NCBI GenBank assembly: GCA_963739685.1
Contig: CAVUAX010000002.1
Location: 712,323-776,322 of the forward strand
Source of the DNA: an uncultured Bacteroidales bacterium
Lineage (GTDB): Bacteria; Bacteroidota; Bacteroidia; Bacteroidales; VadinHA17
Reading direction: 5' to 3'
DNA length: 64,000 nt
Positions 8,003 to 15,552 of this stretch are shown here, in pieces (within the stretch, counting starts at the first letter, position 1; every line of letters starts with the position of its first letter). The position numbers were made by a program, and so were the translations under genes. The notes below the pieces were generated by a model that worked only from the letters and a program-made list of their open reading frames with translations, was not told the DNA's origin and made no database searches.

Positions 8003-8091
8003 GGAGAGATGGCAGAGTGGTCGAATGCGGCGGTCTCGAAAACCGTTGTTCGCCTTCCGGCGAACCGGGGGTTCGAATCCCCCTCTCTCCG
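8003..8091 (+). tRNA. tRNA-Ser (anticodon CGA), type II with long variable arm
   Basis: Hand-folded cloverleaf. Acceptor stem is GGAGAGA/TCTCTCC plus G73. Anticodon stem-loop is GCGGT-CTCGAAA-ACCGT. Variable arm is GTTCGCC-TTCC-GGCGAAC. T arm is GGGGG-TTCGAAT-CCCCC. No encoded CCA. Confidence 0.93.
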
Positions 8092-8104
8092 CAAAGGCAA
8101 ATCA

Positions 8105-8133
8105 AACCCCGCGCCAGCGGGGTTATTTATTTT
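8105..8133 (+). terminator. Rho-independent terminator of tRNA-Ser(CGA)
   Basis: AACCCCGC-GCCA-GCGGGGTT hairpin followed by ATTTATTTT. Confidence 0.75.
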
Positions 8134-8185
8134 ACCGGGGCTCCGAAGAAAGCTTGCTTTCTGAAGGAGTTTCGGTAAAATAAAT
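8125..8185. repeat. 61-nt imperfect palindrome in the tRNA trailer (left copy)
   Basis: The arms ATTTATTTTACCG (8125-8137) and CGGTAAAATAAAT (8173-8185) enclose CTCC..AGAAAGC-TT-GCTTTCT..GGAG. The same sequence occurs in inverted form at 15372-15432. Confidence 0.85.
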
Positions 8186-8190
8186 ATTAA

Positions 8191-8678
8191 CCCGTCAGGG
8201 TTTGATTTGCCTTTGCAGGACTCCCCACAGGGGATCACGAACGAACGAAGTGAGGTCGTAATCCCTGAAAACTGTCAGGGTTTAATTTGCCTTTGCAGGA
8301 CTCCCCACAGGGGATCACGAACGAACGAAGTGAGGTCGTAATCCCTGTAACCCGTCAGGGTTTGTTTTGCCTTTGCAGGACTCCCCACAGGGGATCACGA
8401 ACGAACGAAGTGAGGTCGTAATCCCTGTAACCCGTCAGGGTTTGATTTGCCTTTGCAGGACTCCCCACCGGGGATCACGAACGAACGAAGTGAGGTCGTA
8501 ATCCCTGTAACCCGTCAGGGTTTGATTTGCCTTTGCAGGACTCCCCACCGGGGATCACGAACGAACGAAGTGAGGTCGTAATCCCTGTAACCCGTCAGGG
8601 TTTGTTTTGCCTTTGCAGGACTCCCCACAGGGGATCACGAACGAACGAAGTGAGGTCGTAATCCCTGAAAACTGTCAG
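8191..8678. repeat. Tandem array of an 80-bp noncoding repeat, 6 full units plus 8 nt
   Basis: Units fall at 8191, 8271, 8351, 8431, 8511 and 8591. The consensus is CCCGTCAGGGTTTGATTTGCCTTTGCAGGACTCCCCACAGGGGATCACGAACGAACGAAGTGAGGTCGTAATCCCTGTAA. Only three variable spots are seen. Confidence 0.97.
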
Positions 8679-8960
8679 AAGCCATCTGTAGTTACAAGGA
8701 TCACTCCCCTCCTGTTTCTAACTGGCAAGAGTGAATGCCTGGCAGATGGGTTAATTCAAAATGATCATGAAAATATTAAGTATTAATTGAACTTTTCGGA
8801 ATAAACTATTGTTATTTATTTAACAGCTATATTACAAAACTGGTTAATAATTAACTTCAGGAATTAACCATTTCTAAATTTTATTAAAACAAATAAATGA
8901 TTTTATTATTAAGAAATAAAAAATTTGTCCAATAGTATTAATCCTATTAATAAAAACATT

Positions 8961-9608
8961 ATGCCTATTTATAACCTTCCAGGTAAAGTCTGTTTATTTA
9001 TTACTTTAATAGTTTTTACTACAGGGTGTCAAAATAAGACAACTGATAAAAATTCGTGGCCCACTTCTTTACTATTAATGCCCGACGGATTAAAACAGGA
9101 ACAGGTGCCTGATCCAAACTCAGAAGGGGCCAGGTTGACTGTCCTGTATTGTTCTCAATGCCATGGGACTCCATATCCGTCCGGACATAGTGCATCTGAC
9201 TGGGTCGTAATCATGAGGCGGATGATTTTACTAATGCAAAAATCAGAATATATGGGTTCAGGTGGAGGAATGATGGGGAGAAGAAATATGCCAATGGGAA
9301 TGATGAGAGCAAAAGTGCCCACTCGTGCTGAACAAAAAGAAATTCTTACATATTTACAGGCCCATAGCCTGAAATCTATCCAGGAAAATGAACTGCCGGA
9401 TATATCAAGCACTATTGCAGAAGAATATAAAAATAAATGTTCCATTTGTCATGCGCTTCCTTCTCCCTATCAACATACTGCAGAGGAATGGCCTGCAGTA
9501 GTGGAACGAATGCGTAAGCATATGAAAGACCAAAATATTGCAGCGCTGACAGACGATGAAGCAAACTCGCTTACAAAATATTTACAAAATGCTGTTCAAA
9601 ATAAATAA
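8961..9608 (+). CDS. Dihaem c-type cytochrome lipoprotein with a Met-rich linker
   Basis: The track ORF starts at TTG 8925; I prefer the ATG at 8961. A lipobox-like FTTGC is present. There are two CxxCH motifs (CSQCHG, CSICHA), each followed by the same W..V..RM pattern. MQKSEYMGSGGGMMGRRNMPMGMMRAK lies between them. Confidence 0.8.
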   Translation: MPIYNLPGKVCLFITLIVFTTGCQNKTTDKNSWPTSLLLMPDGLKQEQVPDPNSEGARLTVLYCSQCHGTPYPSGHSASDWVVIMRRMILLMQKSEYMGSGGGMMGRRNMPMGMMRAKVPTRAEQKEILTYLQAHSLKSIQENELPDISSTIAEEYKNKCSICHALPSPYQHTAEEWPAVVERMRKHMKDQNIAALTDDEANSLTKYLQNAVQNK

Positions 9609-9738
9609 TAATTGGAATGAAAGGTAAACAGTCATGCTACCCTAATTTTCTAAAATAACTCTGATCAGGCTTCAGATACAAGAATCATAAAAATTTAATT
9701 CAAAGTCATCAGGCAACAGTTTCTTCAGTTGTGATGTT

Positions 9739-11028
9739 TTATAACAGTATTCCTGCTAAGGATGCTGAAATATAGGATGCCATTGTTCCACAAAGCATTG
9801 CTTTTAATCCAAGTCGTGCAAGATCAGCTTTGCGGGTTGGTGCAATTGCACCAATTCCTCCAATCTGAATGGCTACCGAACTGAAATTTGCAAATCCGCA
9901 TAAAGCAAAACTGGCAATTACAACCGCCCTGGCACTTAATGCACTCTGACTTATCATAGGAGCCATGTCGGAATAAGCAACAAATTCGTTAATGACCATC
10001 TTTGTACCCAAAAGGGAACCAACTGAAAGCGATTCCGAAGGAGGCACTCCCATTACTATCGCAAACAGGCTGAAAATTAACCCAAAAACATCTTTAAGCC
10101 TAAGATGATCCAGATTCAGTCCGACCGCTTCAAGCGATAATCCTGTCCATGCAAGGAAATGCCCGAAATAACCAAGCAGTGCATCAATTAAAGCAATAAG
10201 AGCAATTACACCAATAAGCATTCCTATAACATTTATTGAAATTTTCATCCCGTCACTTGCTCCATGCGAAATTGCATCCATTATATTGGAGTATTGTGTT
10301 TTTACTTCAAGTTTCACTATGCCTTTGGTTTCTGACTCTTCCGTTTCAGGAAAAACAATTTTCGAGATAACCAGTGCACCCGGGGCAGCCATCAGACTGG
10401 CTGCCAAAAGGTATGATGCGGGGATTCCCATTGAAATATAAACAGCCATTACACCCCCTGCGATACACGCCATACTACCCGTCATGGAGGCAAGTAATTC
10501 CGATCTTGTCATACCTGCGAGGTAGGGACGTATCATTATCTGAGCTTCCACCTGACCAACAAAAGCGCTTGCCACATTCGAAAGGGCTTCACTTCCGCTT
10601 ACCCTCATCGCCCAGTGTACAAACCTTGCAATAACTGCAATAACTCTTTGCATTAATCCTATGTGATAAGCCATGGCAACAAGGACGCATACAAAAATAA
10701 TAGTCGGAAGTAATATGAAAAGAAAGACACCACTCCTTGCCACACCGGCAGGAAGGATCTCGGTGACTTTTGTGAGATCTCCAAAAACAAATAGCGCCCC
10801 TTCCTTTGAAAAATCGAGTAGTTTATTAACAGCTTTCCCCAACCAGAAGAAAATATCCTGACCAATAGGAACCTTAAGAATAAATATAGCGAGAGCTGTC
10901 TGTAAAATCAAACCTGTACCAACAAGCCGGTAATTAATTTTTCTGCGATTATTCGACCATAAGAATGCCAGTCCAAGGATAATGATTATTCCTGTAATAC
11001 CAGTAAATCGTCCCATGTATACTTCCAT
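9739..11028 (-). CDS. nupC: NupC/CNT family concentrative nucleoside transporter
   Basis: 429 aa polytopic membrane protein. The N-terminus GITGIIIILGLAFLWSNNRRKINYRLVGTGLILQTALAIFILK and the overall layout are typical of the CNT family. Confidence 0.8.
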   Translation of the reverse strand: MEVYMGRFTGITGIIIILGLAFLWSNNRRKINYRLVGTGLILQTALAIFILKVPIGQDIFFWLGKAVNKLLDFSKEGALFVFGDLTKVTEILPAGVARSGVFLFILLPTIIFVCVLVAMAYHIGLMQRVIAVIARFVHWAMRVSGSEALSNVASAFVGQVEAQIMIRPYLAGMTRSELLASMTGSMACIAGGVMAVYISMGIPASYLLAASLMAAPGALVISKIVFPETEESETKGIVKLEVKTQYSNIMDAISHGASDGMKISINVIGMLIGVIALIALIDALLGYFGHFLAWTGLSLEAVGLNLDHLRLKDVFGLIFSLFAIVMGVPPSESLSVGSLLGTKMVINEFVAYSDMAPMISQSALSARAVVIASFALCGFANFSSVAIQIGGIGAIAPTRKADLARLGLKAMLCGTMASYISASLAGILL

Positions 11029-14874: not shown

Positions 14875-14956
14875 TTTTTAACCTTTTAAATACTTTGTTT
14901 CTTTTTAAACTTTCGATTTACATATGTTAACCGGTTAAGTCTTAAAAATTACGGTG

Positions 14957-14964
14957 CAAAGGTA
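14957..14964 (-). promoter_or_regulatory. Candidate -7 box TACCTTTG for the lipoprotein gene
   Basis: The reverse complement of CAAAGGTA matches TAnnTTTG, about 83 nt upstream of the ATG at 14874. Confidence 0.35.
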
Positions 14965-15046
14965 CTTGTTTTTAGGAAGATAACAAGAAGAATCAGTTTA
15001 ATCTTAAATGATTGGAGTGATCCCAATTTTTTACCGCTCCCGGATT

Positions 15047-15366
15047 TTCTTCACTCGTTGGTAAAACTCCGGTCGGTCATGATCCCCGGTGGGGAGTCCT
15101 GCAAAGGCAAATCAAACCCTGACGGGTTACAGGGATTACGACCTCACTTCGTTCGTTCGTGATCCCCGGTGGGGAGTCCTGCAAAGGCAAATCAAACCCT
15201 GACGGGTTACAGGGATTACGACCTCACTTCGTTCGTTCGTGATCCCCGGTGGGGAGTCCTGCAAAGGCAAATCAAACCCTGACAGTTTTCAGGGATTACG
15301 ACCTCACTTCGTTCGTTCGTGATCCCCGGTGGGGAGTCCTGCAAAGGCAAATCAAACCCTGACGGG
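15047..15366. repeat. Second array of the same 80-bp repeat in inverted orientation, 3 intact units plus 1 decayed unit
   Basis: Intact units lie at 15287-15366, 15207-15286 and 15127-15206. In unit 15047-15126 only about 15077-15126 still matches. All units carry the CCCCACCGGGG variant. Confidence 0.95.
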
Positions 15367-15371
15367 TTAAT

Positions 15372-15432
15372 ATTTATTTTACCGAAACTCCTTCAGAAAG
15401 CAAGCTTTCTTCGGAGCCCCGGTAAAATAAAT
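15372..15432. repeat. 61-nt imperfect palindrome in the tRNA trailer (right copy)
   Basis: Reverse complement of 8125-8185. Confidence 0.85.
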
Positions 15433-15452
15433 AACCCCGCTGGCGCGGGGTT
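15424..15452 (-). terminator. Rho-independent terminator of tRNA-Ser(GCU)
   Basis: Same AACCCCGC-GCCA-GCGGGGTT plus ATTTATTTT sequence as at 8105-8133, here on the minus strand. Confidence 0.75.
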
Positions 15453-15465
15453 TGATTTGCCTGTG

Positions 15466-15552
15466 CGGAGAGAGGGGGATTCGAACCCCCGGTACAGTTT
15501 CCCATACGGCAGTTTAGCAAACTGCTGGTTTAAGCCACTCACCCATCTCTCC
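15466..15552 (-). tRNA. tRNA-Ser (anticodon GCU), type II
   Basis: The minus strand reads GGAGAGATGGGTGAGTGGCTTAAACCAGCAGTTTGCTAAACTGCCGTATGGGAAACTGTACCGGGGGTTCGAATCCCCCTCTCTCCG. The anticodon stem-loop is GCAGT-TTGCTAA-ACTGC. The acceptor and T arms are identical to those of the CGA isoacceptor. Confidence 0.92.

Follow-up and report, generated by a model that had tools for sequence, protein, structure and literature searches.

Directly behind the Escherichia coli tyrT gene lie 178-bp tandem repeats that derive in part from the 3' end and trailer of the transfer RNA (tRNA) gene; their copy number varies by unequal recombination, and the units are direct copies that include the last nucleotides of the tRNA. 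In genomic islands that target tRNA genes (tDNA), displaced 3' tDNA fragments mark site-specific insertions, and decayed elements are known to accrete in tandem (PMC4383910, PMC5704250). [quoted passage not shown] This study concerns a 64,000-nt stretch of DNA from an uncultured Bacteroidales bacterium (contig CAVUAX010000002.1, positions 712,323 to 776,322; hereafter the window), in which two convergent serine tRNA genes, tRNA-Ser(CGA) and tRNA-Ser(GCU), are each followed by a palindromic module and an array of 80-bp repeats. On balance, the module is probably a non-autonomous cassette of small size that enters at tRNA-Ser 3' ends, where it supplies a terminator, its distal part having been tandemly amplified in the window.

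The initial annotation of the window had described two tRNA-Ser genes that point at each other and are near-identical from the T arm onward, and this was confirmed by ARAGORN, Rfam and a repeat search. The inverted arms (8064-8491 and 15066-15493) extend over 428 nt with 98% complementarity in the repeat search, in agreement with the inverted homology of at least about 400 bp that had been claimed, and the mirror homology begins at 8064/15493, which is the start of the T arm. The computational alignment of the arms, proposed earlier as a check, gave 418 of 428 identical positions when counted in register, with 6 mismatches within the first 414 nt; the three differences previously noted by eye (8094 A/C, the CACAGG/CACCGG sites and 8284 A/G) are all among these six. 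The repeat numbers also held up, with six units on the left (6.1 copies according to Tandem Repeats Finder, TRF) and three intact units plus a decayed fourth on the right (3.8 copies). CCA is encoded in neither tRNA gene, the discriminator G being followed by CAA (8092-8094) or CAC (15463-15465). A feature that the first reading had missed is that the 19 nt after each tRNA (GCAAAGGCAAATCAAACCC, termed segment A) recur as their reverse complement, A', in every repeat unit.

The module formed between A and the first A' folds into a four-way junction with helices P1 to P4 (Table 1), and the 80-bp unit consists, in order, of the P4 hairpin, A', a linker and a conserved hairpin, GGGGATCACGAACGAACGAAGTGAGGTCGTAATCCC, of which the first copy lies at 8230-8267. 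In the window, the stem of this hairpin carries an A-G mismatch relative to the consensus, and the terminator scan identified a terminator-like hairpin with a T-rich tail in each unit. The 38-nt unit core was matched 9 times vs. 0.00 expected from shuffles, and the 19-mer 12 times vs. 0.02 expected; within the 64-kb window, the module motifs are confined to the two tRNA-Ser loci. The predicted fold of the left module reaches -104.8 kcal/mol on the tRNA-sense strand (z -10.1), compared with -96.7 on the opposite strand.

Table 1. Coordinates of the two tRNA-Ser loci, their modules and the genes and promoter boxes around them (positions within the window).
Feature	Position	Strand	Evidence and remarks
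tRNA-Ser(CGA)	8003-8092	+	ARAGORN; Rfam tRNA 60.2 bits
tRNA-Ser(GCU)	15465-15552	-	ARAGORN; Rfam 57.8 bits
Left four-way palindromic module, 126-nt imperfect palindrome	8091-8216	+	Sequence, inverted-repeat search, terminator scan, fold, covariation
Left P1	A 8091-8109 paired with A' 8198-8216	+	Helix starts at discriminator base G73
Left P2	8105-8124, then T-run (hairpin + T-run 8105-8134)	+	GC hairpin scoring as intrinsic terminator of the tRNA (terminator scan)
Left P3	arms 8124-8144 / 8166-8186	+	Long hairpin, centre AAGCTT, T-run pairing with A-run
Left P4	8189-8202	+	Small hairpin
Left array, 6.1 copies of 80-bp unit	8188-8678	+	TRF, 96% matches; pattern matches; unit table
Right four-way palindromic module	15341-15466	-	Inverted-repeat search, pattern match, terminator scan, fold
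Right module parts	A 15448-15466; P2 15433-15452 + T-run; A' 15341-15359	-	A with one mismatch, GCACAGG
Right module P3	arms 15371-15391 / 15413-15433	-	
Right array, 3 intact 80-bp units + 1 decayed, 3.8 copies	15066-15369	-	TRF, 95% matches; unit table
-7 promoter box TATATTTG, Bacteroidota-type	7972-7979	+	23 nt before tRNA-Ser(CGA); TANNTTTG scan
-7 box TATTTTTG	15623-15630	-	Before tRNA-Ser(GCU)
Candidate -7 box of core (p196) operon	14957-14964	-	Promoter scan; inside the interval
Cytochrome c-like gene (DHC/Cytochrome_CBB3)	8925-9608	+	Pfam; variable cargo adjoining left module
Conserved core: p196, YkuD (370 aa), YkuD (270 aa), p267, p101, NupC-type nucleoside transporter	9739-14874	-	Open reading frames, Pfam, synteny

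Several other identities were considered for the repeats and set aside. Coding arrays were rejected on the grounds that a period of 80 bp is not divisible by 3 and that neither array is spanned by an open reading frame (ORF) of at least 50 aa, and an array of clustered regularly interspaced short palindromic repeats (CRISPR) on the grounds that the units are head-to-tail and 95-96% identical, without spacers. A miniature inverted-repeat transposable element (MITE) or a repeat like the repetitive extragenic palindromic (REP) sequences does not fit, as the arm sequence differs between loci, no target-site duplication was seen and the motifs occur at only two tRNA-Ser loci in 64 kb. The GAAC...GUGA loop looks like tandem sheared G-A pairs with a GNA triloop; K-turn, hammerhead and sarcin-ricin readings of it, compared by eye with consensus sequences, do not fit. 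It is also extremely improbable that collapsed or chimeric repeats in the assembly produced the arrays or the mirror image. Short-read contigs do break at the arrays, but the breaks fall at array edges, as a true repeat predicts: among the metagenome or relative contigs compared here (designated by L-numbers), L002, a Logan contig from another sample that differs at 6 positions, stops 30 nt into the last unit of the left array, and L001, an exact match to window positions 8661-15087, ends a few tens of bases inside the arrays. Homologous modules and arrays, including arrays with other periods, are moreover found in dozens of independent assemblies. The sequence GGATCACTCC, present at both array-to-cassette junctions (8679-8730 and 15000-15065), is similar to the 5' half of a hairpin variant, ACTCCC/GGGAGT, on the chromosome OW818650.1; these sequences may be older, decayed hairpins beyond the arrays.

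The association with tRNA-Ser extends across a family of loci. A degenerate hairpin pattern with 27 specified bases, scanned over metagenome contigs, identified 43 loci, and in 35 of them a tRNA-Ser gene lies 50-400 nt upstream on the same strand (GCU 9, CGA 7, GGA 18, UGA 1); six of the remaining loci are cut by contig ends and two are orphans (L055 and L060). No tRNA type other than Ser was found among the 43 hairpin loci, and every tRNA-Ser found in this lineage has such a module. The earlier question of whether the unit and the trailer accompany tRNA-Ser genes in relatives is thereby answered in the affirmative, for four anticodons, and the two window loci share trailer and array because both flanking genes are tRNA-Ser genes that carry the family module. 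Across the family the module measures approximately 175-250 bp, and its conserved hairpin has the form GGGATC - stem - GAAC-GNA-GUGA - stem - AATCCC. Segments A and A' change together, reading GCAAAGGCAAATC in the window, GCAACGCCAAATC in L022 and GCAAAGCCAAAAT in L021, the latter two contigs displaying the window layout with altered sequences.

The earlier statement that this architecture corresponds to no described element was likewise upheld. In Rfam 15, no family matched the unit or the trailer at E<=1 and the tRNA model alone passed; Chlorobi-1 scored 18.9 bits on the trailer against a gathering score of 50, which is chance level. Searches of phage and plasmid collections with the module or the hairpin matched only the 30-nt tRNA part, and IMG/VR returned 0 matches, revealing no autonomous parent. 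Over the genome collection, the 19-mer GCAAAGGCAAATCAAACCC gave 16 single chance matches, two of them in a Saccharicrinis coding region with no tRNA nearby, and no description of such a module was found in the literature.

The signature of insertion rests on the relatives, because the window units are without the pseudo 3' end described here. In 45 loci, the final 17 nt of tRNA-Ser, A58 to G73, were found copied 13 times (ATCCCCCTCTCTCCG, termed a pseudo 3' end). All 13 copies are on the tRNA strand and are fused to the 3' strand of the hairpin at the same position, A58, and they lie within approximately 450 nt of the tRNA wherever the contig has one. The pseudo 3' end is then followed by another module, often of an unrelated type with its own A/A' pair (L036, L044, L051 and L065), and unrelated module types are stacked in these four loci and in L021. 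In the window, both tRNA genes are intact with the module starting at the discriminator base, which corresponds to insertion into a tRNA gene with the gene regenerated.

Module types also turn over between genomes while the loci of a single genome stay alike. L021 is as near to the window as L022 and carries a different module type at both of its tRNAs; at its GCU locus, a decaying module of the window type is displaced distally, behind two pseudo 3' ends. Displacement of an old module by one entering at the tRNA is the kind of mark by which site-specific insertions into tRNA genes are mapped, and it also agrees with decayed elements accreting in tandem (PMC4383910, PMC5704250). Identity between the two loci of a genome is 95-99% in the window, in L021, in L022 and in L024/L039, with types differing between genomes, and the loci of OW818650.1, which are 13 kb apart, are of the same type by inspection, as is the L067/L070 pair. 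One and the same stack of two types is found at a CGA locus (L036) and at a GGA locus (L065, beside an asparaginase gene), with distal modules that are 92% identical; therefore, spread is not confined to a neighbouring convergent pair. The top 120 homologues of this L-asparaginase, a conserved neighbour of the GGA locus, include no contig from the genome of the window or from OW818650.1. Amplification has been recurrent and independent, with periods of 44 bp (L067), 80 bp (window) and 188 bp (L022), and each locus has between 1 and 6 hairpins.

Pseudo 3' ends and hairpins could instead be scars, namely the leftover right attachment sites (attR) of full-size elements or prophages that had integrated at tRNA-Ser and were later deleted, in which case no small cassette would exist as a unit. 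[quoted passage not shown] Such scars would be expected to decay, however, whereas the pairing in P1-P4 and in the hairpin has been kept through extensive sequence change. Additionally, wherever a tRNA is present, all 13 pseudo 3' ends stand no more than approximately 450 nt from it, and larger inserts have none at their far side, and the hairpin was not found in the phage, plasmid and IMG/VR collections. An origin as island scars is accordingly considered improbable.

The two orphan units, each composed of A' and the hairpin with no tRNA-Ser upstream, lie at 4930-5015 of L060 (with a pseudo 3' end) and at 1-260 of L055, and probably arose by rearrangement with a breakpoint inside the palindrome. 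L060 has no tRNA within 4.9 kb and was considered as the right end of a large island; because its neighbours are ordinary genes (an AMP-binding enzyme, a POT transporter and GH127), it was taken as an orphan resulting from rearrangement. In L041 (680-745, minus strand), a module of the L059 type carries a deletion between two CGGGAT repeats through which the T-run, P3, P4 and A' were lost, leaving the tRNA and a P2 without its T-run directly before the conserved hairpin.

The fold of the module is conserved to a far greater degree than its sequence. Each of the 40 distinct modules has the 17-19 nt behind G73 paired with a segment located 105-125 nt downstream. The P1 sequence differs from locus to locus, as many as four standard pair types being found at one position, and the same four-way junction is predicted for all 40. 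Between 38 and 39 of the 40 begin with G-C-A and end with T-G-C, such that the first three P1 pairs are almost invariant and the rest of the helix is variable. Covariation was evaluated on an alignment of 17 sequences (A1), for which RNAalifold predicts P1-P4 and the hairpin. In this alignment, 94.5% of cells are paired vs. 35-51% with the partners slid, compensatory double changes are present in 30 of 59 pairs vs. 8-11 in the slid controls, and none of 500 shuffles attained any of the observed measures. The hairpin stem covaries as well (ACGACC/GGTCGT, ACTCCC/GGGAGT and ACGCC/GGCGT, with the short forms GCC/GGC, ATC/GAT and ATTCGC/GCGAAT) around a constant loop, GAAC-GNA-G(U/A)GA or a bare GNA triloop.

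The two strands of the module are not equivalent. The tRNA-sense strand is the more stable in 34 of 40 modules with RNA parameters and in 30 of 40 with DNA parameters, purines make up 68% of its unpaired bases, and it contains C-GNA-G 79 times vs. 21 times on the opposite strand. Therefore, the conserved form appears to be a folded single strand of tRNA sense. The covariation is no proof that this strand is RNA, because template-switch mutation can maintain complementarity in a DNA palindrome without selection and because G:U and A:C cells are about equally frequent, which makes the wobble-pair strand test uninformative; template switching likewise weakens the covariation as proof of selection. 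C-GNA-G triloops, including GCGAAGC, form extraordinarily stable mini-hairpins in DNA (PMC13037366).

A conserved fold of this kind could also belong to a structured RNA of the host. Such an RNA would be produced by read-through from the tRNA-Ser promoter and, because P1 starts exactly at the discriminator base, released by ribonuclease (RNase) P and RNase Z or RNase III. It might serve as a reinforced terminator or as an insulator where a tRNA gene is highly expressed, as a signal for 3' processing, or as an RNA that binds protein and titrates a factor via its repeated GAAC-GNA-GUGA hairpins, and spread among tRNA-Ser loci would occur by gene conversion. The covariation-supported four-way junction and hairpin, the favoured tRNA-sense strand with its purine- and A-rich loops, and the terminator-like hairpin with T-rich tail in each unit agree with this proposal, as do the repeated amplification of hairpin number in different lineages and the observation that the only -7 boxes pointing into the modules are those of the tRNAs; rRNA operons of E. 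coli provide a precedent with a small RNA (sRNA) that arises when transcription reads through a first terminator (PMC8144298). The intrinsic terminator formed by P2 and the T-run is, however, located in the first third of the module, so that the majority of transcripts should end short of A' and the hairpin. Nor does a host RNA account for the restriction to tRNA-Ser, the stacked unrelated types or the copy of the tRNA 3' end at module ends. G:U pairs are no commoner than A:C, many loops are the C-GNA-G triloops whose stability in DNA mini-hairpins is extraordinary (PMC13037366), and no Rfam family matches. Overall, a host RNA is a rather unlikely explanation in its own right, and it and the cassette are not mutually exclusive.

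Under the preferred reading as an inserting cassette, each arm of the window would be a copy of a lineage-wide module specific to the tRNA-Ser 3' flank. New copies would enter at the tRNA-Ser 3' end, bringing a replacement 3' end and a terminator, and older modules would be pushed downstream, each marked by a pseudo 3' end. Copies would spread to other tRNA-Ser genes of the same genome either by means of a tRNA-Ser-specific recombinase acting in trans or by repair guided by homology in the shared tRNA 3' end, and the attP of a full-length parent element would be expected to carry A' - hairpin - AATCCCCCTCTCTCCG - A. In the lineage of the window, the distal 80 bp (P4, A' and hairpin) would have been tandemly amplified, and the convergent loci homogenised by gene conversion, with the 428-nt mirror image as a by-product. 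The anatomy of the module, its restriction to tRNA-Ser, the covariation, the stacking, the turnover among relatives, the identity of loci within genomes and the constant orientation of the cassette are shown by the data, whereas the mobility, the enzyme behind it and the nature of the relevant folded form (RNA or single-stranded DNA) are inferred.

Several observations weigh against the cassette. The window units end in ...AATCCCTG without CTCTCTCCG and carry no pseudo 3' end, no integrase or site-specific recombinase was seen adjoining any module or among the 30 window ORFs scanned, and the phage, plasmid and IMG/VR collections contained no autonomous parent element. A circle of approximately 200 bp would be an unusual substrate, and the identity between loci within a genome could be the outcome of local gene conversion alone. 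Additionally, structure kept under sequence turnover is also what a functional RNA would show, and the preference for the tRNA-sense strand suits a role as host RNA as well as it does an element working through a folded single strand.

The initial annotation had further proposed that the mirrored homology brackets a 6.4-kb cassette that can be inverted, and this proposal fared less well. As a recombination switch, the 428-nt inverted homology would flip 8679-15065 with both tRNAs regenerated. In length and similarity, the arms would suffice for RecA-dependent recombination, and recA is encoded at 29910-30977, 14 kb from the repeats, as the sole recombination protein among the 30 ORFs scanned; the accompanying argument that a crossover anywhere in the shared segment regenerates both tRNAs is sound, the homology starting inside the tRNA, and a RecA-mediated flip is physically possible. 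Relatives, however, display a single arrangement. The comparison included L021 and L022, L066-L070 (among them the 4.57-Mb chromosome OW818650.1), L024/L039, L036, L040, L047, L054 and L063, and the order rlmD - tRNA-Ser(GCU)> - p196/YkuD/YkuD/p267/NupC - <tRNA-Ser(CGA) - PorTail/rlmN recurs in every one; the convergent tRNA-Ser pair is thus an old syntenic feature. With neighbouring proteins that are 54-91% identical to those of the window, the orientation of the cassette is constant in at least nine related contigs (L021, L022, L024+L039, L036, L040, L047, L054, L063, L066+L069 and L067+L070), and no fixed inversion was found in any relative sampled that spans flank and cassette. The interval ranges from 6.3 to approximately 24 kb in length through gene gain beside the modules, with the orientation of the core unchanged.

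The gene content argues in the same direction. Neither an invertase nor a tyrosine recombinase was found among the 30 ORFs, and the absence of a recombinase that had been noted for the window was thus borne out for site-specific recombinases in Pfam scans of these ORFs (those under 230 aa were scanned within 5-19 kb). The genes inside the interval are housekeeping genes, and the core operon has its candidate -7 box within the interval. As the initial annotation had itself cautioned, an inversion would not obviously switch expression; because each tRNA would still precede co-directional genes after the flip, inversion would be without regulatory logic. The family module is also found where a tRNA-Ser gene (GGA or UGA) stands alone, without a partner on its contig. 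Therefore, the 6.4-kb interval is best read as a block of housekeeping genes with ancient synteny rather than as a cassette programmed to invert, and a switch is judged very improbable.

The interval contains, besides the cytochrome c-like gene and the NupC-type transporter, two YkuD L,D-transpeptidase genes and genes for three small proteins, and it is flanked by rlmD, rlmN and a gene for a protein with a type IX secretion system (T9SS) tail (PorTail); the homologues of the window proteins have source names of Bacteroidia or Bacteroidales metagenome-assembled genomes. The cytochrome c-like gene is shared with L022 and is missing from that position in several relatives, and an AT-rich imperfect tandem repeat (22-23 bp, approximately 2 copies, 8876-8926) lies just upstream of it. 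More generally, gene content between module and core varies, with cytochrome c in the window (8925-9608) and GFO_IDH plus ceramidase, SusC/D, MFS plus a TTHB210-like protein, or a Laminin_G protein elsewhere (L066 11903-14728, L067 15351-21324, L069 1611-6278 and L070 5202-6905); no pseudo 3' end or hairpin was found at the far side of these larger variable inserts (L066-L070). Among the promoter-like -7 boxes, those of the tRNAs are the only ones that point into the modules; the -7 motif occurs at chance level over the window, and for the box before tRNA-Ser(CGA) its position alone is suggestive. An antisense sRNA with its own promoter was rejected as a primary reading, no -7 box pointing into the arrays from the cassette side.

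Further small elements were observed around these loci. A two-gene insert encoding a SpoIIE/PP2C phosphatase and an AAA_15/AAA_21 ATPase (approximately 760 aa) is located between rlmD and tRNA-Ser(GCU) in several relatives (L021 1932-5044, L022 1957-5012 and L067 11479-14607), the equivalent position of the window (15553-15670) being empty and L039 having a gap that matches the insert in size; this site is possibly a variable, defence-type spot upstream of the tRNA. In L022, a C-rich tandem repeat of 102 bp x 4.5 (CCCCCATCTCCCC...GGGGGG hairpins; 1272-1731 and 1675-1820) lies just downstream of rlmD and is unrelated to the 80-bp unit. Two more short elements recur behind tRNA-Ser modules, a C-rich hairpin, ACCTCTCCCCAAACCCCTCCCCCAGGAGGGAGGGGCTTA, and an element of approximately 60 nt, CCCTGCAGTCTGGCTCCTTCGCTAAATTTGCCCACTGGGCAAATTCTTAACGCTCGGCC; the contigs concerned are L022 (inside the 188-bp unit), L027/L046, L029, L062 and L070, and L026, L038, L048, L049, L056/L063 and L064. 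Small repeats seem to accumulate in the tRNA-Ser 3' flank.

Compared with the systems described previously, the module shares with tDNA-targeted islands, with cis-mobilizable elements (CIMEs) and with NBU2 its position at the 3' end of an intact tRNA gene and the targeting of one tRNA identity (PMC4383910, PMC5704250, PMC9259675). It further resembles islands and CIMEs in the direct-orientation copy of the tRNA 3' end at the distal boundary in relatives, in tandem stacking and in the proximal position of the newer type at the L021 GCU locus. Unlike such islands, it measures approximately 200 bp and has no integrase or other gene, no autonomous parent was found in the collections searched, and the window units are without a tRNA-derived core; inside, it consists of a conserved four-way palindrome, which supplies the tRNA with its terminator and keeps its fold under sequence turnover. 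The tyrT repeats differ in that the window units carry the reverse complement of the trailer and a conserved hairpin, and in that the family is common to all tRNA-Ser isoacceptors across many genomes. Invertons and shufflons likewise have a segment bracketed by inverted repeats (here 428 nt, 418 of 428 identical), but the window differs from them in having no dedicated recombinase among 30 ORFs, no alternative orientation in relatives and no promoter or coding switch.

Two further classes offer partial parallels. As in integron arrays, cassettes are found serially at a fixed entry site, and the newest-proximal order that is the rule in integrons was seen here at one locus, L021 GCU; as in attC sites, the module is conserved in secondary structure rather than sequence and displays strand asymmetry. 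In contrast to integrons, the module has no IntI, attI, cassette ORFs or R'/R'' core motifs, and its entry site is a tRNA 3' end, so the resemblance would concern how the module might work and not membership. Like REP sequences and REPINs, enterobacterial repetitive intergenic consensus (ERIC) sequences and Correia-type MITEs, the module is an intergenic imperfect palindrome, here of approximately 126 bp, whose long-hairpin fold is kept by compensatory changes. Whereas those elements are dispersed, have conserved termini and reach copy numbers in the tens to hundreds, the module occurs only directly after tRNA-Ser, its arms vary freely and its first pair includes the discriminator base of the tRNA.

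A broader proposal can be put forward tentatively, as one possibility that we hold to be less likely than the cassette itself. An undescribed class of gene-less, structure-defined mini-cassettes may home to tRNA-Ser 3' ends in environmental Bacteroidia and accumulate in the manner of integron cassettes. Each might be recognised as a folded single strand, in which the GAAC-GNA-GUGA hairpin abuts the 17-nt tRNA core, and might supply the terminator, so that the host would depend on it. Alternatively or additionally, the hairpin arrays may constitute a tRNA-linked RNA whose function is to titrate an RNA-binding protein.

Should the module prove to be a mobile cassette, no smaller kind of tRNA-targeted insertion element would be known, and it would be gene-less and defined by its fold rather than its sequence; an essential tRNA gene would receive its terminator from it, raising the question of which enzyme moves it and how tRNA-Ser is recognised. 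If it is an RNA, it would represent a widespread structured RNA of uncultured Bacteroidia that has no Rfam family and is co-transcribed with a single tRNA identity. Either way, the modules break short-read assemblies at tRNA-Ser genes and create long inverted and direct repeats that are able to rearrange chromosomes, two orphan units having been seen. They also occupy the att sites that are used by NBU2-type vectors in Bacteroides genetics. Finally, mirror-image repeats around a block of genes need not mean a switch.

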